Positions 12,080 to 62,659 of a stretch of DNA of 64,000 nt are shown piece by piece (positions within the stretch are counted from its first letter, which is position 1; each line of letters starts with the position of its first letter). Source of the DNA: an uncultured Acidobacteriota bacterium (GTDB lineage: Bacteria; Acidobacteriota; Terriglobia; Acidiferrales; UBA7541); contig CAWCTJ010000010.1 of NCBI GenBank assembly GCA_963798585.1, positions 138,198-202,197 of the forward strand, read 5' to 3'. The notes under the pieces are model-generated. The model saw only the letters and a program-made list of their open reading frames with translations. It did no database searches and was not told the origin of the DNA. The position numbers were made by a program, and so were the translations under genes.

Positions 12080-12335
12080 AGGGGGCCCCCCTCCCCCTTT
12101 TTTGTAAGTGTTCATTCTAATGGGATTAAAGTCCTTTATTTTGATACGGTTTCGCAAGTGTTCATTCTGGACGGTTTACGGGCGCTTTGAGTTATATAAA
12201 TAGTAACGAGCGCGCGTTAGGAAAAGGCCTCATTTTCTGGAGTTGGGTGATGCTTGGGCGGGCGCACTTCTGTACATGCAAAGAATAGCAAAGTGATGAG
12301 TACATTGTCAAGTACTGATTTGGGATAGTACTGTC
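12080..12335 (-). repeat. Promoter/repeat/G-run element, copy 1
   Basis: On the minus strand: TTGACA(12311-12306)-18-TATTCT with TGn, two ...AGAATGAACACTT repeats (12154-12178, 12104-12129), then AAAAAAGGGGGAGGGGGG. Positions 12098-12138 match 53225-53265 at 37/41 nt. Confidence 0.8.
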
Positions 12336-12352: not shown

Positions 12353-13761
12353 CTATGGGTGGGTCATTTCCTCGGGGCGGACCTGGGCGTCGAATTCTTC
12401 GGCGGTGAGGAAGCCGAGCTTTACGGCGGCTTCGCGGAGGCTGGTGTGTTCGTGGTGGGCGGTGTGGGCTACTTTGGCGGCGTTGTCATAGCCGATTTTG
12501 GGGGCCAGCGCGGTGACCAGCATCAGCGAGATTTGCACGTAGTGCTCGATTTGCTCGCGGTTGACGCCGATACCCTCCACGCAGTGATGCACGAAGCTGT
12601 TCATGGCATCCGTGAGCAGTTCCACGGAGTGGAGATAGTTGAAGATCATCACCGGCTTGTAGACGTTTAGCTCGAAATTGCCTTGAGAGCCGGCGATGCC
12701 GATGGCGGCGTCGTTGCCCATGACTTGTACCGCGACCATGGTCAACGCTTCGCACTGCGTGGGATTTACTTTGCCGGGCATGATGCTGGAGCCTGGCTCG
12801 TTTTCGGGCAACGTTAGTTCGCCGAGCCCGCAGCGCGGGCCGGAGGCCAGCCAGCGAACGTCGTTGGCGATTTTCATCAGCGAGGCCGCCAGCGTTTTCA
12901 GCGCGCCGCTGGCGAAGACGATTTCGTCGTGCGCGGAGAGCGCGGCGAACTTGTTGGGATGCGAGCGGAAGGGCAGACCGCTGAGTTCGGCGATTTTGCG
13001 CGCGGCGCGCTCGGCAAATTCCGGGATGCGCGTTTAGCCCGGTGCCCACTGCGGTGCCGCCGATGGCCAGTTCGTACAAGACCATCCAGCGCCACTGCCA
13101 TGCGCGCGCCATCGCGATCGAGCAGGCTGACCCAGCCGGAAAATTCCTGGCCCACGGTGAGTGGAGTGGCGTCCTGCAAGTGCGTGCGGCCAATTTTTAC
13201 GATGTCGGCGAATTCCTTGCGCTTTACTTCGAGGGCGTCGCGCAGCTTTTTCAGCGCGGGCAGCAAGCGGCGGGCGGTTTCCGTGGCGGCGGCGATGTGC
13301 ATGGCGGCGGGAAAAGTGTCGTTTGAAGACTGCGACATGTTTACATCGTCGTTGGGATGGATGGGTTTCTTGCTGCCCATTTCGCCGCCGGACAATTCGA
13401 TGGCGCGGTTGGAAATTACTTCGTTGACGTTCATGTTGGTTTGCGTGCCGCTGCCGGTTTGCCAGATGCGCAGCGGGAAATGGTCGTGGAGTTTGCCGGA
13501 GATGACTTCGTCGGCGGCGATGGAGATTAATTTGGTTTTTTCGATGTCTAGTTTGCCGAGGTCGTGGTTTACCAGCGCGGCGGCTTTTTTCAGGATGCCG
13601 AAGGCGCGGATCAGCTCCGGAGGCATGGTGTCTTTGCCGATGGCGAAGTGAATCAGCGAACGCGCCGTTTGCGCGCCGTAGTAACGGTCGGTGGGAACTT
13701 CCATTTTTCCCATGCTGTCGGATTCGGTGCGAGTGGGGAGTTGCTGGGCGATGTCGGTCAT
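12353..13761 (-). CDS. fumC: Class II fumarate hydratase (frameshifted)
   Basis: [32 protein letters not shown], signature [15 protein letters not shown]. Confidence 0.97.
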
Positions 13762-30943: not shown

Positions 30944-31936
30944 ATGAACGCCTCAGAGAACCCGCCACTGCTAGCCATCCTTGGCCCCACGGCCTCCGGC
31001 AAATCCGCCCTGGCGATCCACCTGGCGCATCAACTGAACGGCGAAGTCATCGCCTGCGATTCCACGCAACTCTACCGTGGCTTCGACATCGGCACAGGCA
31101 AACCCACATCCGCCGAACGTCAAGGCATCCCGCATCATCTGCTCGATGTTTTAAATCCCAACGAAGAAGCCACCGCCGGCGGCTATCGCGAAATGGCTTT
31201 GGCCGTCCTAAACGATCTCCGCGCGCGCGAAAAACTTCCCATTCTAACTGTAGGCACTGGCCTCTACCTGCGCGCCCTGTTCGAGGGCCTCGCCGACCTT
31301 CCGCAACGTTCCGAAGACCTCCGTGCCCGTCTTCGCGTCAGCATCGAAAAACACGGACCGGAATATTTGCACCGTCTCCTAAAGCGCCTCGACCCGCGAT
31401 CCGCGCATCGCATCGCGCCCGCGGACACGCAAAAATTGATCCGCGCCATAGAAGTCTGCATCCTAACCCGCAAGCCCCTAACGCAAGTCCACAGCGAGGG
31501 CCGCAGCCCGCTCCAAGGTTGGCAAATCATAAAAATTGGCCTCCAGCCCCCGCGCGAAGAACTCTACGCCCGCATTCACACTCGTATCGACAACATGCTG
31601 GCCGCCGGCTGGCAAGATGAAGTAACGCACCTGCTAGCCGCGACCTCGCCTGAAAATCGCCAGGCTGCCGCAAGCGCGCCAGAGAACGCCAAGCCCTTCG
31701 ATTTCCTGGGTTACCGCGAACTAGCCGCCGTCAGCCGAAACGAACTCTCCCTTGCGGAAGCCTGCGCCGCCATCCAACAATCCACCCGTCGCTACGCCAA
31801 GCGCCAGCAAACCTGGTTCCGCCGCGAACAGTCCGTAACCTGGTTCGCCGGTTTCGGCGACCAGTCGCAACTCCAAGCCGAAATTCTGCGGTGGCTAAAA
31901 CGTTGTAGCGGCGGGTCTTCAGACCCGTGCCTTTGA
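30944..31936 (+). CDS. miaA: tRNA dimethylallyltransferase
   Basis: GPTASGKS, DSTQLYRGFDIGTGKP, GTGLYLRAL, TRRYAKRQQTWFR. Confidence 0.96.
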   Translation: MNASENPPLLAILGPTASGKSALAIHLAHQLNGEVIACDSTQLYRGFDIGTGKPTSAERQGIPHHLLDVLNPNEEATAGGYREMALAVLNDLRAREKLPILTVGTGLYLRALFEGLADLPQRSEDLRARLRVSIEKHGPEYLHRLLKRLDPRSAHRIAPADTQKLIRAIEVCILTRKPLTQVHSEGRSPLQGWQIIKIGLQPPREELYARIHTRIDNMLAAGWQDEVTHLLAATSPENRQAAASAPENAKPFDFLGYRELAAVSRNELSLAEACAAIQQSTRRYAKRQQTWFRREQSVTWFAGFGDQSQLQAEILRWLKRCSGGSSDPCL

Positions 31937-32004
31937 CCTTAAGCATTTCACTGGACTTAAAAGTTGGCCTCCGACTTTGTAGCGGCCGGGCTTCAGTCCC
32001 GGCC
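31904..32004 (+). repeat. Two GTAG-type REP palindromes
   Basis: TGTAGCGGCGGGTCTTCAGACCCG and TGTAGCGGCCGGGCTTCAGTCCCGGCC. The second recurs at 34178. Confidence 0.8.
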
Positions 32005-32069
32005 TTAGCCTTTTTCAACCAGCCCACCCGCGCCGTAAACGTCACAGCGCAGCCACGCCAGAACCATTT

Positions 32070-32320
32070 TCCGCTAGACTTCCTAGATACCTTATGCTAT
32101 ATTTGCTCTCGTAGATAACCACGTTTAGGGTTCTCCTTCGTAGTTGCAAATTGGTAACGCCAAAGCCCCCTTTATCTACGTTTAACCCCTGTATTGTCTA
32201 TCTCTTTCGCAGAGTCGCAAAAACCAGAATTTCTTAACCCTTTAGAATCTATATCTTATAAATCGCATGCCGTGTAACTCCTTTACGGCCTATATGTTTC
32301 ATAAAGAAGGGGGTGGGGGT
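32070..32320 (+). repeat. Promoter/repeat/G-run element, copy 2 (diverged)
   Basis: TAGACT(32075)-17-TATATT with TGn. Three related repeats beginning TAAC..CT (32183, 32235, 32275). Ends AAAGAAGGGGGTGGGGG. Confidence 0.65.
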
Positions 32321-32462
32321 GAGTCGCATTTCCACCGTTCAGAAAGCTCCAGTGCCGGGGTGCCTAGGCGATCCTTCGCCCATGCTCTGCCAGCAGCGTA
32401 TAATCTTGACGACGGTCGTCTATCCTTCTATGACCCAGGAAAGCTCTCGTAGGTAATCGTTC

Positions 32463-48572: not shown

Positions 48573-48657
48573 AGCGCCGTCGGCGCGGCATAAGTTAGCC
48601 CAGCCCGGCAGGGCTGGGTCTGGGATGCCGGAATCATGAGCGCTGTAGGCGCGACAC
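48573..48657. repeat. REP-like palindromic element
   Basis: AGCGCCGTCGGCGC...CCCAGCCCGGCAGGGCTGGG...AGCGCTGTAGGCGC. Confidence 0.6.
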
Positions 48658-52836: not shown

Positions 52837-53044
52837 TACTTCTGCTTTCGCCCGTGCGAAACAAGCTGCCGATTCCGTCCACTGTTTAATTCTCAACCTT
52901 CGCCAAAAACGCACCGAAGGCAAAGGTTTCCCCTAGATTGAGTTCTAGATTCCCGATTCGGCACGGTAACCCAGGAAAGTCAGCCACGCTTTCGTGTACG
53001 TCTTATCCAATTCGAATGTGCTCCACTCATCTCCTTGTAGACAA

Positions 53045-53288
53045 AGCTCTTACTATTAATTACTTGACAAGCAGTACCGATATGCTATAATTCTGTGTGA
53101 ATTTAGTTCTCCATCGCTCGGCCTACGCTAAACCAACCGCAGCCCGTCCCACTGTTATCGTCCGAGTAACTAGCAAGGCCATCCCTAACTCCTGTAGAAT
53201 CCGCACTTATGCAAGTGTTCATTCTAAAGGACTTTAAACCCTCCAGAATGAACACTTACAAAAAACCCATAGGGGGGTGGTCCCTGCC
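53045..53288 (+). repeat. Promoter/repeat/G-run element, copy 3
   Basis: TTGACA(53064)-16-TATAAT(53086) with TGn. Repeats at 53186 (+), 53211 (inverted) and 53235 (+). Ends AAAAAACCCATAGGGGGGTGG. Confidence 0.8.
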
Positions 53289-53405
53289 GTCCACGAGCGT
53301 CGCTTCCGTAGCCGCCTTCCGCCAACGCCGAGGTCGACCGCCCCTCGCCGCCATTTCCTTACCTCTTACTTCCTTACTTCGCCTTTCAGACTCTGGTGTC
53401 TCAAG

Positions 53406-54764
53406 ATGAGCCAACTCACCTTCAACCTCATGCCGCAGCGCCGCATCCTCACCGTCAGCGAACTGACCGGCAGGGTCCGCGACCTGCTTGCCAAGAATTT
53501 CACGGACATCTGGGTCGAAGGCGAAATCTCCAATTGCCGCCCCGCCCAATCCGGCCACATTTATTTCACCCTGAAGGATGATCGCGCGCAGGTGAAGTGC
53601 GTTTTCTTCAAGCAGCAGCAGCGTGGCATCAAGTTTCGCCCGGAAGACGGCTTGCACGTCACCGTGCGCGGCTCACTCAGCGTTTACGAATCGCGCGGAG
53701 AATATCAGATTTATGTAGAGACTCTCGAACCGGTAGGACTTGGCGCGCTGCAGCTGGCTTTCGAGCAACTGAAAAAGCGCCTCGAAGCCGAAGGCCTCTT
53801 CTCGCAAGAAAGAAAAAAGCCGCTCCCGCTGCTGCCGAGTCGCATCGGCCTGATCACCTCGCCGCGTGGCGCCGCCGTCCGCGACGTGATTCGCATCCTG
53901 CGCCGCCGATTTCCCAATGTCTGTCTCACGGTCTACCCTGTGCGCGTACAGGGTGACGGCGCGGCCAAGGAAATCGTCGAAGCGCTTCGCCATTTCAATC
54001 GCAAAAGCACTGTCGACGTCATCATTCTCGCCCGCGGCGGCGGCTCCATCGAAGATCTCTGGTCCTTCAACGAAGAAATCGTCGCTCGCGCCATTTCCGT
54101 TTCGCTGATTCCGATTATTTCCGGTGTCGGCCACGAAACCGATTTCACCATCGTCGACTTCGTCGCCGACGTGCGCGCCTCCACGCCTTCCGCCGCCGCC
54201 GAACTCGTCGTGCAAACCCGCCGCGAGTTCGACAAGCACATCGCCGATCTGCGCGAAACCATCGCCAGCCTGATTCGCTACCGCCTCCTCGAATCCTCCC
54301 GTCGCGTCCATGAACTCGCCGGTAGCCGCGGCTTCCGCCGCCCGCTCGATCTCCTTCGCCAACAGCGCCAGCGCGCCGACGAGATGACCTCGCGCCTAGC
54401 ACAAGGCCTCCGCGCCCGCCTGGAACAATCCCGCAAGCGTTTCACCACTGCTCACGTGCGCATCGTCTCCTTCGATTTCCGCATGCGCATCGCGGCCTTC
54501 CGTCTGCGTCTCGAAAAGCGCGCCGCCGAGCTGGGCGTTCGCGGCGAGCGCCTCGTGCGCGCCAAACGCGAACGCTTCGAGCGTCTCCGCCTGCAGCTCA
54601 ACGAACGCAGCCCACTAAAAGTCCTCGAACGCGGCTACGCCATCGCCACAGATGCCGCCGGCAACATCCTCAAATCCGTCGAAGGGGTAAATCTAGGAGA
54701 CGCCGTAACCGTTCAACTCCGCCACGGCCAGCTCACCACCGAAGTGAAGGAAAAGAAGGGATGA
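53406..54764 (+). CDS. xseA: Exodeoxyribonuclease VII large subunit
   Basis: WVEGEISN, SGHIYFTLKD, ARGGGSIEDLWSFNEE, GVGHETD, TPSAAAE, LERGYAI. Confidence 0.97.
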   Translation: MSQLTFNLMPQRRILTVSELTGRVRDLLAKNFTDIWVEGEISNCRPAQSGHIYFTLKDDRAQVKCVFFKQQQRGIKFRPEDGLHVTVRGSLSVYESRGEYQIYVETLEPVGLGALQLAFEQLKKRLEAEGLFSQERKKPLPLLPSRIGLITSPRGAAVRDVIRILRRRFPNVCLTVYPVRVQGDGAAKEIVEALRHFNRKSTVDVIILARGGGSIEDLWSFNEEIVARAISVSLIPIISGVGHETDFTIVDFVADVRASTPSAAAELVVQTRREFDKHIADLRETIASLIRYRLLESSRRVHELAGSRGFRRPLDLLRQQRQRADEMTSRLAQGLRARLEQSRKRFTTAHVRIVSFDFRMRIAAFRLRLEKRAAELGVRGERLVRAKRERFERLRLQLNERSPLKVLERGYAIATDAAGNILKSVEGVNLGDAVTVQLRHGQLTTEVKEKKG

Positions 54765-54769
54765 TGTCG

Positions 54770-55021
54770 CTATCGGTAGATTTCGCCGCGATAGTCTACT
54801 CGCAGAACGATCCCCGTTTTTGCCGCGTCATTTATTTCGTAAACGACCCGGTAATCTCCACGCGAATTCGCCAATCCTTGGAATCCGCCAGCTTAGGCAG
54901 CCAGACGGCCGCGGGTCGCCACCCAGGATAGCGATTTTCTTCTTTATGGATTCTAGTGGATCGGATCAAGCGCCGCGAGTTCTTTTTGGCCGCGCGGAAG
55001 TACATAAAGCGCGTAAGTCAC
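54770..55021 (-). pseudogene. RelE/ParE-family toxin pseudogene
   Basis: Manual translation across one stop and several indels: MTYALYVLPRGQKELAALD...DPRPSGC..KL...WRIRV/GDYRVVYEIND...LRVDYRGEIYR*. Confidence 0.85.
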
Positions 55022-55218
55022 TTGCGGTTTCGTTCGATTTCGGCAATCGCTTCGTCGAAGGGGATCGGTGTTTCACCGAATGCTCTGGCTTCTTCAGCTT
55101 CGCGGATAGCTTCGAGGTCTTCACGATCTTCCGAGAATCTCTCGTCCTCTTCGACGCTTATGATTACCGCAACCTGCTGTCAACGGTCATTTACTATGAA
55201 TTGTTTCGGGCTTGCCAT
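55018..55218 (-). pseudogene. Antitoxin pseudogene (RelB/Phd-like)
   Basis: MASPKQFIVNDR*QQVAVIISVEEDERFSEDREDLEAIREAEEARAFGETPIPFDEAIAEIERNRK*. GTGA overlap with the toxin. Confidence 0.8.
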
Positions 55219-55283
55219 AAGGAAACTCTCCCAGGTGCTACTGCACGGATTTAGAGTCGGCAATAGGAGGTGCGCAGAGATCA

Positions 55284-57100
55284 CTAATCGTCGTCGGACG
55301 AGGACGCTACCTTAAGGACCGCGAGGAAAGCTTCTTGCGGAATATCCACCTGGCCGACACGCTTCATGCGTTTTTTACCTTCTTTTTGTTTTTCAAGGAG
55401 TTTGCGTTTGCGCGAAATATCGCCACCGTAGCATTTGGCCAAAACGTTCTTGCGAATCGCCGAAACCGTTTCACGTGCGATCACCCGGCTGCCGATTGCG
55501 GCTTGAATCGGCACGTCAAACATTTGCCGCGGAATCAATTTGCGCAATCGCGTGACCAATTCGCGCCCGCGGTCGTAGGCAAAGTCGCGGTGAATGATCA
55601 GCGCCAGCGCGTCCACTGGTTCGCCACCGACCAGCACATCCAGCTTGATCAAATCGGATTCGTGGTACCCGGCCAAATGGTAATCCAGCGAGGCGTAGCC
55701 GCGTGAAACACTCTTCAAACGATCATAGAAATCCAGCACGATTTCGTTCAGCGGCAATTCGTACGTCAGCATCACGCGCGTGGGCGAAAGATGCTCAAGG
55801 TTCTCTGCACGCCGCGCTTTTCGTGGCACAACTGCAGAATCGCGCCGACCGAATCCACGCTGGTGATGATCATGGCTTTGATGATGGGCTCTTCGATTTT
55901 GGCAATGTCGCTGGGATTCGGGAATTTTCCCGGACTGTCGATTTCCGTAATTTCTCCTGTGACGCGCGTTATGCGATACAGCACGCTCGGTGCGGTGATA
56001 ATTAAGTTCAGCCCGAATTCCCGCTCCAGACGCTCTTGCACGATTTCCATGTGCAATAGCCCGAGAAAACCGCAGCGGAAACCGAAACCGAGCGCCACGG
56101 AATTTTCTGGTTCGTAAAAAAATGCTGCATCATTGAGCTGCAATTTTCCCAGAGCGTCGCGCAGCGGTTCGTACTCATCGGCCAGCACGGGAAACAGTCC
56201 GGCGAACACCATGGGCTTGATGGCTTCAAATCCCGGCAGCGCGGCTGCCGGCCGTGCGGCTTCAATGACGGTATCACCCATGCGGGCGTCGGCCACGGTT
56301 TTGATATTCGCGACGATAAAGCCCACGTCGCCGGCTTCCAGTTCTTCGAGCGCCACGGGTTTGGGAGTGAGCGTGCCGAGCTGTTCGACTTCGTAAGTGT
56401 CGTTGCCGGCCACTAATTTTATTTTTACGTGATTGGTCAGCCGGCCTTCCATCACGCGAACCAGCACCACGGCGCCGCGATAAATGTCGAACCAGGAATC
56501 GAAAATGAGCGCCTGCAACGGATTTTCCGCGCTGCCTTTTGGCGCGGGAATTCTTTTTACGATGGCTTCGAGAACATCTTCCACGCCTAGCCCGCTTTTT
56601 GCACTGATCAACAGCGCGTCTTCGGCGGAAATGGCCAGTACGCTTTCGATCTGTTCTTTGACAACTTCGGTTTGCGCGGCGGGCAAATCAATCTTGTTGA
56701 TCACCGGCAAAATGGTGAGGTTGTGCCCCGCGGCAAGAAAAGTATTGGCAACGGTTTGCGCTTCGACGCCCTGGCTGGCATCGACCACCAGCAGAGCGCC
56801 TTCGCACGCGGAAAGCGCACGGGAAACTTCGTAGGAAAAATCGACGTGGCCAGGCGTGTCGATCAGATTCAAGCGATAGGTATTGCCGTCTTTGGCCTGG
56901 TAATGCAGGCGAATGCTTTTGGCTTTGATGGTGATGCCGCGTTCCCGCTCCAGATCCATGGAGTCGAGAATTTGCTCTTGCCCGCCCATTTCACGGGAGG
57001 TCAGCGCGCCGGTCATTTCGATCAGACGGTCGGCGAGCGTGGATTTACCGTGGTCGATGTGCGCAATGATGCAGAAATTGCGGATGAATTGTGGATCCAT
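55284..57100 (-). CDS. lepA: Elongation factor 4 (one frameshift)
   Basis: [63 protein letters not shown]. Confidence 0.98.
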
Positions 57101-57319
57101 TTATCTTTTTTGGCCGGCAGGATGTTGTTCGTTGAAGAACATCCGCGCGGGCATTGCCGGCGGGCCTGCTCGCTGCGGAAGCCGGATTGCAGCGCAAAAA
57201 CCTTGCCGTGTAAACATTCAGTTTGCCATAAATTGCAGACTGCGTCAGCTTGCGGACGAGTGGATGTCAGAAGGTTCCGCGTCCTCGTTGCGACGGCTCG
57301 GGCTGGGGGATAATTGGGT

Positions 57320-57583
57320 ATGGACACTCGTTGCGCGCGTTGCGATGCTCCGATGAGTTGTGATCCTGCGGGAAATTGCTGGTGCAAGGAGCTGCCGCAC
57401 GGCCCGATGCCCGTGACGAATATTCTGGACCTGCAATCTCGCCAAGCTGTGGTGCAGCATTTCCTCGAAGCTCAGGATAAACCTGCACCCGTACAGGAGG
57501 CACGTGCGACGGGTTGCTTGTGTCGCGATTGCCTAGAGAACGACCTGCGGGCGCAAGGGTTGCTGGGCTCGAGGCCGGACTGA
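57320..57583 (+). CDS. Small cysteine-rich CWC-type protein
   Basis: CARCDAPMSC...CWC...CLCRDC. Confidence 0.75.
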   Translation: MDTRCARCDAPMSCDPAGNCWCKELPHGPMPVTNILDLQSRQAVVQHFLEAQDKPAPVQEARATGCLCRDCLENDLRAQGLLGSRPD

Positions 57584-57789
57584 AGCGGTACGAGGGCCAC
57601 GGTGCCGGATATGCATCGTATCGCCGCGATTTTTGCCGGGTCTTGAGCTGAGGTATATAGTTAAAAAGAGTGGATTTGGCGCAATGCTGTTGCCGCACTG
57701 CGCTCGGCCGAATCCACCAGACAACTGTATTTTCTGGAAGTGTAACCAGACGCGGGACTGGGAGTTCCACGCAAAGGGCGTAGCCACGA

Positions 57790-60457
57790 ATGGCTGCAGA
57801 CATCAGCAAAAACCTGGATCGCGCGAAGCGGTTCTTGGAGAAGAATCGCGTTGAGGACGCCATCGAAGCGTACCTCGCGGTGCTGGACGAGTCTCCGCAG
57901 CATCAGGAGGCCACGCAGGCGCTGGGGGACTTGTACGCGCGCGCGGACCAACCCGATCGCGCCGCGGTGTATTACGGCATGTTCTTCGATTTGCTGGTCG
58001 AGCCGAAGGATGAAACGAAAGCGCTGGCGATCTACAACCGCTTCCTGAAAAGCGGCGCGCAGCCGCCGGAGCGCATCGCGCGCTTCGCCTTCCTGCAGCA
58101 AAAACAGAATCGCGGCGAAGAAGCCATCGAGCAGTACGGCAAAGCGGCGGAACTCTTCACGGCGGCATTGCGAGAAGAGGATGCATTGTTCTGTTGGGAG
58201 CGCATTGCGCTACTCGATCCGGAAAATCTGTCGCGGCAATTGCGGCTGGCGGAGGCCGCGGAGCGTCTTGGGAAGAACGCTTTATCGGCGCGGACATTCT
58301 TGCGCGCGGCACAGCTGGCGACGGCGGGCGGCTCGTCTAGCGACGCGCTGAAATTGCTGGGACGCGCACACAAACTGGCGCCGCAGGAGCGCAGCGTTTC
58401 ACTGCTGTACGCGGAGGCAAAACTGAAGTCCGGGGCAGCGGCGGAAGCTGCGGCGCTTCTGGAGCCTTTTGCCGCGACGGAGAGCGACGTGACGTTTCTG
58501 GATATTTTCGGCGACGCGTTGATGCACGCGGGAAATCTGGACCGCGCCCGCGAGGTTCTGGACCGCCTGCTGCGGGAAAAGAACGAGGGCGTCCAGCGGC
58601 TTTTTGAACTGGCGGACTGTTACGCGGCGGCCCAGCAAGACGCCAAAGCGGTGGAAATATTCTTGACGCTGAAGCGGCGAATGTTCGCCGACAAGAAGCA
58701 GAACGAATTCGCGATGCAAATGGATGCGGTAGCAGCGAAGCATCCGCAATCGCAAGCGATTCTGGAGTTTTGGGCGGCGCTATATAACGAATTGAACCGT
58801 GAATCGCAGTATTTTGAAATCCTAATTAAATTGTTCGACGTGTACGTGAAGGCGGGGAATATTCCCAAGGCCGCGGAAGCCATCGAGCGCCTGGTGGATA
58901 TCGACGCGTACGACTACCGCAACCAGGAACGGCTGGACGCGCTGCGCGGCAAAGTGGATGAAGGATTTGTGCAGCGTGTGGCGAGCCGCCTGGCTAAATC
59001 GGCAACCTCCACGGCGCCTCCGACAACGCAACCGCAAGCGGCGCCCAGCCAGGTGACGGAATCGCCGTTAGCGGTCACCGAAGAGGGACGCAAACTGCAG
59101 GCGCTGGACGACCTGATCGTACAGACCGAGATTTTTCTGCAGTACTCGCTGCAGAGCAAGGCGCTCGAACGCATGCAAAGAATCGCGGCAATGTTTCCCG
59201 GTGAAGAGGCGCGCAACGCGCGGCTGGCGAACCTCTATCAACTGGCGAACTGGACGCCACCAGTGTCACAAGCGCCAGCGAGCGCGGCGACGAAATCCGA
59301 CGCTTATCCGGCGCGGCAGTCTCAACAGGCTCAACAATCTCCGCAGCCAGCCACAGATTCCGCAGACATCGCAAACGATGCAGGCGACGCGGTCGTCGAC
59401 AGACAGTGCCACGCAGACCACGAGTAAGACTGGGGTGTACAGCGTTGAAACGTTGCGGGACCTGACAAAAATCTCCGACATCAATCAAAAGATCTTTCGG
59501 CAACAGACGCCCAGGGCGATGTTGAACACCGCGGTGAATGAGGTGGGGACGTATCTGAAGGTGACGCGGGCGCTGGCGGTGGTGGGCGCTCCGGGGCGCC
59601 CGCCGGAAATGGCCGCGGAATATTGCGCGCAGACCGTCAAGCCGGCGCCGGGCGCGCAAGTGGTGTTTCTGCTGGCGCACATGGAAAAAGCGCAGCCGGA
59701 TGAGTTCGGTGGATTGATCGTGGAAGCGACGGAGGGCTCGATCTTGAGTGAGTTGGGACTGGTGACGGCCCTGGGGGTGATGATCACGGACAAAGAAACG
59801 CAGACGCCCGCAGGGATGCTGATCGTGGGACATGCGGAGGCGCACAAATGGCGGCCGAATGAAGCATATTTTTTGCAGGCTATCGGCGACCAGATGCTGA
59901 TGAGCGTGAGTCACACGCGGCTGCGCTCACTCGTGCGCCGGATGGGGGTTTCTGACGAGCGCACCGGACTGCTGAGTCGCAGTTCGTACCAGAGCTGTTT
60001 GCTGAATGAAGCGGACCGCTCGCGGACGCAGAACACGCCGCTCTCTTTGGCCATTTTGCAGATCGATCATGGCGCGGAGCTGGTGCGCAACCAGGGTGAA
60101 ACGCAGATGGAGCGGTTTCTCGAACAGTTGGCGCGGTCACTGCAGCCCATTGTGCGCCAGAACGATGTGGCGATTAAATATACGTCTTGGTCGCTGGCGT
60201 TTATTTTGCCGGATACGACGTTGCCCGGAGCGCAGAACCTGGCGGACAAGTTGTTGCGCGCGGCATCCGGGTTGCGGCCGCCTTGGGATTCGACGTTGAT
60301 CACTCTGAGCGCGGGGATTGTCGAAGCGGTGGTAAAGCCGGATTACGACAGCGAAGATATTGTGACGGATTTGATCAATCGCGCGGAATTTTCGATGGAA
60401 GAGGCGCGGAAGAAGGGCGGGGATACTGTGGTGGTGCAGGAGACGCCGAAGGTTTAG
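57790..60457 (+). CDS. TPR + GAF-like + degenerate GGDEF signalling protein (frameshift in a Gln-rich linker)
   Basis: Long TPR-like region, a GAF-like segment (VGH...HKWRPNEAYFLQAIGDQ), then DERTGLLSR, SLAILQID, TLSAGI and ARKKGGD. The GGDEF site reads YTSWS. Confidence 0.85.
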
Positions 60458-61767: not shown

Positions 61768-62193
61768 TCAAAACAACTGGGTTTCCAACGTTGCGATGAA
61801 TTGAATTCCTGGAACAAATTTACCAAGAAGCCGTTTATCGTTGGTCAAAAAAAGATCCACCTTTGCCTGGGCGGCGCAAGCCAGATGAATTGCATCCGCA
61901 GGCGCGACTCCTTGCGTCGCCCGGATTCTGGCGTAATGCTCCGAGGCTTCGAGGTTGAATGGAATCACCTCGGAAATCACGCTTTGCAGAAGTCGCCGCG
62001 ACTCGTCCGCTGCTCGTACGGCGCCCGCGCGGTAGACACCAGCGAGTACTTCGCCAAAGGTGAAAGCACTGGTGATCAGTTCGTCCCCACGCTCCTTCAT
62101 CTTTGCGTGGACCGCTCCAGTGCGTCTGGCAAACTGCGGATTGTCTTCCAGCCAATACACAAAGAGCATTGAATCCCAGTAGATTCGGCTCAC
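61768..62193 (-). CDS. PIN-domain (VapC-like) toxin
   Basis: IYWDSMLFVY, TFGEV, ADAIHLACA, FLTND. Confidence 0.92.
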   Translation of the reverse strand: MSRIYWDSMLFVYWLEDNPQFARRTGAVHAKMKERGDELITSAFTFGEVLAGVYRAGAVRAADESRRLLQSVISEVIPFNLEASEHYARIRATQGVAPADAIHLACAAQAKVDLFLTNDKRLLGKFVPGIQFIATLETQLF

Positions 62194-62594
62194 GAGCTTT
62201 CCTTCTCGGCGTAAAAACTCTCTCGCTCCCCGCGGAGATAGGCTTCACCACCTCCAAACCCGGCAAAGACATTCTTTAGCGATCCTCGCAGCTCGGTCCA
62301 TGGGTCCGAATTAGCCTGTGACGCATCCAGAGCGTCAACAAATTCATAGGTATAGGTTACGGTTGTGCTCTGCCCCGAAGTTGGGCCGGTGCTTTCCACT
62401 AACTTCAGACCATTTTGTTTTAGGAATACACTGCGCCCAAGAGCGCTGCAAACTGCGGGCACTCGACCATACAACTTGAGATCCCGTACAACGTCGCCCG
62501 CACGAATCGAAAATCGCCGTAGTTTTTGATTTCGAGCAGTTACGACATATTTGTTCCGGACGTAGGTTCGAATGTCATCCGCCATCTTTGCCAT
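62190..62594 (-). CDS. Putative antitoxin / DNA-binding partner of the PIN protein
   Basis: Coupled to the PIN gene by a 4-nt overlap. N-terminal domain with IRAGDV...RVPAVCSAL...GPTSGQSTT and a short C-terminal tail GGGEAYLRGERESF. Confidence 0.75.
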   Translation of the reverse strand: MAKMADDIRTYVRNKYVVTARNQKLRRFSIRAGDVVRDLKLYGRVPAVCSALGRSVFLKQNGLKLVESTGPTSGQSTTVTYTYEFVDALDASQANSDPWTELRGSLKNVFAGFGGGEAYLRGERESFYAEKESS

Positions 62595-62624
62595 AGTGAT
62601 TCCCTCTTTTGAATACCTTGCTGC

Positions 62625-62659
62625 ATTGCTAGAATAGCATGAAATAGCATGCATATCAA
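62625..62659 (-). promoter_or_regulatory. Sigma70-like promoter of the PIN operon with overlapping repeats
   Basis: TTGATA-17-TATTCT with TGn. CATGCTATT occurs twice, and an inverted TGCTA..TAGCA overlaps the -10. Confidence 0.7.

Follow-up and report, generated by a model that had tools for sequence, protein, structure and literature searches.

Repeats of the REP/BIME, MITE and Correia types are intergenic, occur in many copies and have subfamilies and empty sites. By published accounts, GTAs package host DNA from no defined starting points, and a bacterial chromosome has a single origin with a skew arm on either side. In RcGTA and CcGTA, a single-copy, vertically inherited head-tail-lysis cluster occupies a fixed locus (PMC6854486; 10.1101/2023.11.12.565669), the small terminase apparently has no specific DNA-binding domain and carries a C-terminal TerL-binding tail, which in RcGTA binds the TerL ATPase domain (PMC6854486), and a terminator-like hairpin early in the operon points to antitermination. 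Bartonella BaGTA couples a domesticated phage particle to replication begun inside the chromosome, with one phage-derived origin and its own helicase (PMC2697382). In pac and pseudo-pac packaging and in lateral transduction (P22, PICIs), processing is directional from a terminase site, pseudo-pac sites being chance look-alikes (PMC12946183). A literature search, with most subscription papers and supplements outside its scope, returned no description of the element, cluster or skew pattern presented here, and the available part of PMC5900883 lists acidobacterial prophages with no such system among them.

The genome analysed here (G000, Ca. Acidiferrum, Acidobacteria; 4.43 Mb, 75% complete) contains a family of evenly spaced cassettes that have a polar skew gradient and appear to set the local skew sign. 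They share a promoter with a single-copy, inherited podovirus-like cluster, and are tied to it also by an ORF with a co-varying tail that is largely identical to a tail encoded in the cluster. Like RcGTA and CcGTA, the cluster has head, tail and lysis genes at a fixed locus and a hairpin early in the operon, and comEC is present in the genome; RcGTA has a 14-kb cluster, whereas the one described here is podovirus-like and about 30 kb long. BaGTA is similar in that a domesticated phage particle would be coupled to replication begun within the chromosome, with about 100 dispersed polar sites here instead of one phage-derived origin, and a search of the genome with one phage-type helicase family (PF13481) had the host DnaB as its best hit. 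In contrast to pseudo-pac sites, the cassettes are complex, conserved, evenly spaced and promoter-bearing, and part of them come with an adaptor gene. They differ from REP/BIME, MITE and Correia repeats in having no terminal inverted repeats, no transposase partner having been seen, and in their even spacing, their polar skew gradient and a promoter in common with a phage operon. The cassettes may work like GTA pac sites or like many run-off origins, and belong with either class by likeness only.

The window, by which we mean the whole 64-kb stretch of DNA analysed (G000:C10:138198-202197), holds three copies, all of them where the earlier note had placed them. The features discussed below are:

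12086..12311, minus strand: copy 1, type A, after fumC (sequence, alignment)
32075..32319, plus strand: copy 2, diverged subtype, between miaA and hflX (sequence, relatives)
53011..53016, plus strand: TTCGAA motif upstream of the copy 3 promoter, a mark of type-C copies (sequence, family motif)
53064..53091, plus strand: predicted sigma70-type promoter of copy 3, TTGACA and extended -10 TGCTATAAT (sequence)
53097..53237, plus strand: leaderless GTG frame of copy 3, 46 codons, spanning the first two repeat units (sequence)
53186..53210, plus strand: repeat unit 1 of copy 3, TAAC-N6-AGAAT-S...CACTT (weight matrix, sequence)
53213..53236, minus strand: inverted middle unit of copy 3, pairing with unit 3 as a 13-bp stem (pattern, fold)
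53235..53259, plus strand: repeat unit 3 of copy 3, 49 nt after unit 1 (pattern, weight matrix)
53260..53279, plus strand: terminal A-run, CCCATA and G-run of copy 3 (sequence)
53406..54764, plus strand: xseA, downstream of copy 3 (family assignment, skew, relatives)
55000..58000, no strand: origin-like GC-skew flip, C-rich turning G-rich, 2-5 kb downstream of copy 3 (skew, family kernel)

Copy 3 is a mixed case, with a type-A repeat block and a type-C-like start. Its -35 (TTGACA) lies at 53064-53069 and its extended -10 at 53083-53091, and the TTCGAA motif stands 48 nt before the -35, versus the 18-28 nt usual in type C. The counterpart of its frame in the relative G036 has 88 codons and overlaps the start of xseA. 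The A-run covers 53260-53265 and the G-run 53272-53277. The 13-bp stem is perfect, as had been claimed (AAGTGTTCATTCT, 53213-53225, with AGAATGAACACTT, 53245-53257), and the transcript 53095-53290 folds with z = -2.9, a value equalled by 2 of 200 shuffles. The 37/41 identity reported between copies 1 and 3 was reproduced by alignment (4 of 41 positions differ in the block 53225-53265); two bases further 5' it is 35/41. Copy 1 has the +1 motif GTACAGAAGTGCGCC, units at 12163-12178 and 12113-12128 and a G-run at 12086-12097, while copy 2 has a weight-matrix score of 14 and TAGACT as its -35. Across the window the unit pattern is matched 4 times, where chance would give 0.02. xseA shows a strong C bias (fourfold-site skew -0.56), and the skew flips at about 56 kb, copy 3 lying just before the flip; a second element was looked for by eye at 55-58 kb and none was seen.

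An nhmmer search of the genome gave 98 hits at E<=10 and a single one once the genome was reversed, and the last block alone has 35 genome matches (none with the reversed pattern). Our catalogue comprises 100 copies: 96 weight-matrix sites and 4 added by hand, copy 2 included. The common layout is a near-consensus sigma70 promoter, a variable leader, at least two units TAAC-N6-AGAAT(C/G), an A-run and a G-run. The linkage of promoter, repeats and G-run seen in the first three copies was kept in the larger set, with the promoter in 78 and the G-run in 80 of 96 sites. Of 70 same-strand unit spacings, 64 are 40/41 nt (36) or 49/50 nt (28), about four or five helical turns, which suggests protein sites on DNA. 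As in iterons, the direct repeats are in helical phase; in Pfam and PHROGs, the cassette ORF has no match to a Rep initiator family. The IHF consensus is WATCAA-N4-TTR. In its strict form it has 9 matches in the elements, 10-fold over background, and the main unit has a 3-nt spacer instead (74 matches, 80-fold).

Types A and B have a conserved motif at +1 (GTAGAGAAGTGCGCC), and type C begins at +1 with a start codon and is preceded by TTCGAA. The type-C frame is open from the leaderless start to the first unit in 21 of 26 copies, against 2 and 5 for the other frames, in a count where the +1 frame is biased by ATGA/GTGA; with these frames, and with the 46 codons of copy 3, the description of the element as non-coding could not be upheld. 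A structured ncRNA was also rejected, as secondary structure is not conserved across copies: the fold z of the repeat block ranges from -9.7 to +0.8 in 36 type-A copies, and the stem, absent from about half of the type-A copies, is not a feature of the family. The earlier interpretation is retained as to a dispersed, probably protein-bound and transcribed site, and dropped as to a structured ncRNA; it had not included the zinc-finger ORF of full-length copies, the terminase-type tail of that ORF, or the domesticated phage cluster with the common promoter. Neither transposase nor terminal inverted repeats were seen in the copy contexts inspected, in agreement with the earlier note, and an IS or MITE was rejected on these grounds. 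We also considered and rejected a promoter serving the downstream gene; the classes of flanking-gene orientation are even (30/26/22/20), and cassettes are oriented independently of their neighbours.

At G000:C4:93745-94074 (minus strand) the block of two units plus G-run is triplicated in tandem, with a period of about 125 nt. In another subtype the G-run is missing, and CATCATACTGAGCGCAAAG and its complement form a long, nearly perfect inverted repeat:

G000:C19:68644, C16:83844, C10:236531, C6:65350, C3:232184, C18:176972: sites of the CATCATACTGAGCGCAAAG inverted-repeat subtype

The 74 gaps between cassettes have a mean of 43.0 kb and a CV of 0.45, compared with a null mean of 0.89. None of 2000 random placements was as even, and 3 gaps are below 15 kb where 21.7 were expected. 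The headful size of P22 is close to this spacing. The skew has a polarity as well. Read on the element strand, fourfold-site skew at the element is -0.30 in same-strand and -0.31 in opposite-strand genes (gene calls by a purpose-written caller, covering 75% of the genome). The deconvolved kernel peaks at -0.115 and decays within 25-30 kb on the upstream side and 4 kb on the downstream side; its R2 of 0.17 exceeds the maximum of 0.073 in 100 orientation shuffles, although it accounts for only 17-20% of the skew variance. The upstream side is C-rich (negative skew) in 82 of 93 copies. Thus the earlier link between elements and local skew holds in that the gradient follows element polarity; that the elements cause it, we infer. 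Gradients of types A and B are one-sided; in type C the skew turns G-rich (+0.06) 4 kb downstream, in the manner of an origin.

The pattern is repeated in relatives. Upstream skew is negative in 7 of 9 copies in G003, and in G171, a member of another genus, cassettes read by eye stand at C-to-G flips; at G171:C1:1338529-1343432, one such flip is straddled by two back-to-back cassettes. One element in G056 has its C-rich tract on the wrong side. G010, the intended negative control, has one diverged element in 331 kb, with neither terL nor the zinc finger found when looked for, and shows the same spread of 4-kb skew (sd 0.10); in G055 the spread is smaller (0.063). Together with the 80% of variance left unexplained, the spread in G010 speaks against a simple cause. 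At xseA, the median skew is -0.60 with the element and -0.36 without it (p 0.02; kin are not independent, G051 was dropped for a misplaced match and G063 left out), and close relatives without the xseA element retain the skew. Sharp G-rich peaks with no catalogued element occur in the source genome on C6 (about 4, 340 and 748 kb) and C10 (about 80 and 276 kb), and could be lost copies, undetected copies or the result of another cause.

The cluster was located through a weak PF03237 hit; PF03354 and PF04860 gave no match in the genome.

G000:C4, 45-75 kb: podovirus-like cluster, about 30 kb (PHROGs, Pfam, NCBIfam, Atlas)

It comprises TerL (PHROG E 2.5e-34), genes in the portal and scaffold positions, a podovirus-type major head protein, tail genes and lysis genes, among them an SLT lysin. 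The head protein matches at E 1.7e-7 in PHROGs, at E 3.3e-8 to NCBIfam capsid_maj_Podo (below cut-off) and at 0.99 to viral clusters in Atlas, and has no match in the GenBank phages and PDB sequences searched. The cluster lies between the same host genes in all six genomes compared. Within the genus, terL is found in 55 and the capsid gene in 44 of 121 genomes, nearly always single, with capsid identities of 81-97%; 15 of 21 family genomes have the capsid. Because the host locus is fixed and the copy single across genus and family genomes, we regard the cluster as domesticated, and, as in GTAs, its phage structural and packaging genes have stayed at one host locus and been passed on vertically. 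Scans of 29 ORFs in PHROGs and 16 in Pfam, with most ORFs unmatched, turned up neither an integrase nor a repressor or replication module. The cluster promoter is the type-A element promoter with its +1 motif, followed by a hairpin and a T-run, in 5 of 6 genomes. In the source genome many frameshifts interrupt the cluster, from decay or assembly error; fumC (window 12353-13761, minus strand) is also split, into two ORFs, and the two cases together suggest indel errors in the assembly. Upstream of the cluster, an HTH-like gene (G000:C4:78612-78998, L042:2613-2999, minus strand; 59-90% identical in five relatives; weak match to an excisionase family, E 0.036) is a candidate activator. Between terL and the portal-position gene a gene pair is inserted (G000:C4:68936-69572, plus strand), presumably MazEF-like.

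The cassette-borne ORF encodes a zinc-finger motif, C-x9-C-x11-C-x2-H, with 11 matches at 10 loci in the source genome. Of eight motif hits, seven follow an element G-run and one follows the element promoter, and relatives show the same coupling. In the AF2 model the finger is accompanied by helices 34-56, 66-81 and 87-119 (pLDDT >90) and a low-complexity end. The family has 1939 representatives at E<=0.001, is present in 85 of 121 genus genomes, and matched no named family in Pfam, PHROGs, NCBIfam, PDB sequences, Foldseek (pdb, viral) or Atlas, nor, by Pfam, PHROG or fold, any known small terminase. Pfam zf-primase aligns with the finger at E 4e-5 to 0.15, below cut-off, and the likeness to the Mcm10 zinc finger is weak (E 0.055 in a PDB search).

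Small-terminase genes are expected directly before terL, whereas the zinc-finger ORFs are dispersed behind cassettes and another gene occupies that position. Its profile match to the zinc-finger proteins is limited to a 17-column tail, and the zinc-finger ORF on C14 has 17 of 21 residues in common with the gene before terL. The tails are matched within each genome (IDMTGAPRPIR in G000, IIFDMPGP in G006, PRIVF in G001), and the tail pattern occurs in 28 of 150 representatives, against 0.1 in shuffles; many zinc-finger proteins have no tail. Complex prediction for the zinc-finger tail region and the TerL ATPase domain of G006 scored 0.52, versus 0.00 for the best control, with runs agreeing in at least 92% of contacts and a partner pLDDT of at least 76. 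The pass mark was attained by 116 of 157 solved pairs and by 2 of 215 mismatched ones, but only 18 of those solved pairs, along with both mismatches, passed at <=0.60; the model lends weak support to a contact between tail and TerL. In another family, the gene before terL at L051 (G019:C109) has an HTH-like N terminus and a similar tail, VVVRAPRP, and is likely an ancestral one-piece small terminase.

Among relatives, the zinc finger is present in 51 of 54 terL+ and 32 of 65 terL- genomes, and at least 6 units per Mb are found in 29 of 54 and 11 of 65, respectively (G062 left out; kin are not independent in either count). Few units of the searched pattern occur in 25 of the terL+ genomes. The 11 unit-rich terL- genomes include G056, G077 and G083, which are near complete. 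In G056 the cluster is deleted and the operon promoter kept, and G008, G012 and G013 have lost the head and tail genes from the locus but still have abundant elements. A small-terminase profile, run without a positive control, had no match in five terL- genomes.

We favour, at about an even chance of being right, the reading that the cassettes are dedicated terminase-loading sites of a GTA-like podovirus cluster, with local strand-biased DNA synthesis. Cassette promoters would fire together with the capsid operon, and zinc-finger proteins from about ten full-length loci would bind the helically phased units in trans, assisted by an IHF/HU-type bender, providing the DNA recognition apparently missing from the small terminase that the cluster itself encodes. 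The zinc-finger tail would recruit the ATPase domain of the large terminase, and TerL would cut at cassettes and package host DNA. DNA synthesis would start at or just downstream of the cassette, either in place (run-off-like) or from the cut end after transfer. Both cutting and synthesis would be strand-biased, so that the skew is written over time, and a spacing near one capsid load would be upheld by gain, loss and homogenisation of copies. In most bacteria the G-rich strand is the leading strand; if that applies here, synthesis would run backwards from the cassette. A cut end resected for a few kb before priming a fork could leave the 4-kb downstream tail.

Terminase loading at cassettes predicts discrete packaging starts, contrary to the random packaging expected of a GTA. 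The extra step of DNA synthesis must be assumed because the upstream gradient is unlike the trace of plain headful packaging, and skews of -0.3 to -0.6, which require very frequent events, count against this reading. So do the PF13481 search without a phage-type helicase, the unit-rich terL- and unit-poor terL+ genomes, the skew spread of G010, the elements that stay abundant after loss of head and tail genes, the frameshifts in the cluster, the small share of variance captured by the kernel, the tail-less zinc-finger proteins, the misplaced C-rich tract in G056 and the failure of the zinc-finger protein to match known small terminases. More tentatively, and with some doubt, we suggest that in a whole bacterial family the chromosome has been reorganised around about 100 evenly spaced, polar start cassettes together with a modular adaptor, a zinc finger plus terminase tail, such that copying and packaging begin one capsid load apart and cassettes, not oriC, dominate the mutational strand bias. 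Much of the genome would then be inherited via many local origins or particle-borne exchange. The cassettes would give exact coordinates at which packaging may be programmed or initiation occur at many sites, and would account for the oscillating skew of these genomes. The cluster, undescribed in the literature searched, family-wide and domesticated in abundant soil bacteria, may represent a new lineage of GTAs. Even under another mechanism, the spacing and the skew kernel call for an explanation.

A fairly unlikely alternative is that ordinary growth itself makes use of the cassettes, as local origins from which the chromosome is copied at many points; the zinc-finger protein would be the initiator, priming would occur by transcription or an R-loop at the G-run, and the tail would be a phage relic. 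The skew is strand-independent and replication-sized, and the flips of type-C copies are origin-like, yet the gradients of types A and B run backwards from the promoter, opposite in direction to ColE1-type priming. Mean skews near zero, only -0.027 to +0.058 in the 15 contigs >100 kb and -0.034 and +0.014 in two stretches of G171 2.1 Mb apart, would fit many such origins, as would the even spacing and the weakly Mcm10-like finger. Elements outlast the loss of terL or capsid; on the other hand, many relatives have few or no elements, copy 2 is missing in a close relative with no visible cost, and dnaA and dnaB are present. Local origins also leave the genome-matched terminase tails and the shared operon promoter unexplained.

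That the cassettes are selfish non-autonomous satellites, which hijack the domesticated terminase for packaging and spread, much as phage satellites employ a small terminase of their own, and owe their spacing to competition between copies and not to any benefit for the host, is in our view unlikely. None of the other 27 hflX loci read has copy 2, and in one of these, in the close relative G036, its stretch of about 440 nt (about 31936-32374) corresponds to 18 nt, an empty site as expected of a satellite; the flanks have diverged too far for a target duplication to show. At xseA, on the contrary, roughly half of 29 species retain the site: the pattern finds an element at 14 of 29 loci, and two more were recognised by eye. 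The repeat subfamilies at this same site differ between species, so that positions can be old and sequences homogenised. ORF-bearing copies resemble autonomous elements beside many short ones, tails track the resident terminase, and the tandem triplication on C4 would agree with spread, although copies within the genome are diverse, with no recent bursts. Furthermore, no transposase, integrase or terminal repeats were seen beside the copies read, and the last-block DNA pattern is missing from the viral contigs searched (0 stretches).

Regulatory small RNAs or stand-alone promoters, with skew from transcription or chance, are very improbable and largely refuted by the strand-independent upstream gradient, since strong consensus promoters with a conserved +1 motif and the long stems of part of the copies are set against stemless type-A copies, no Rfam match, orientation independent of downstream genes, even spacing, and a skew that reaches 25 kb upstream of the promoter and is equal in genes on both strands.

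Some further features of the window were recorded. Just upstream of copy 2 are two GTAG-tagged palindromes (about 31905-31935 and 31979-32005), which we take to be REP-like; the first, also found in G036, forms the left boundary of the empty site. In Rfam at the gathering score, where the element is unmatched, the sole hit in the window is Acido-Lenti-1 RNA (RF01687) at 48573-48618 on the minus strand, with 54.8 bits, above that score. Two small gene pairs on the minus strand, at about 54800-55200 and at 61768-62654, presumably resemble RelE-type and PIN-type toxin-antitoxin modules.
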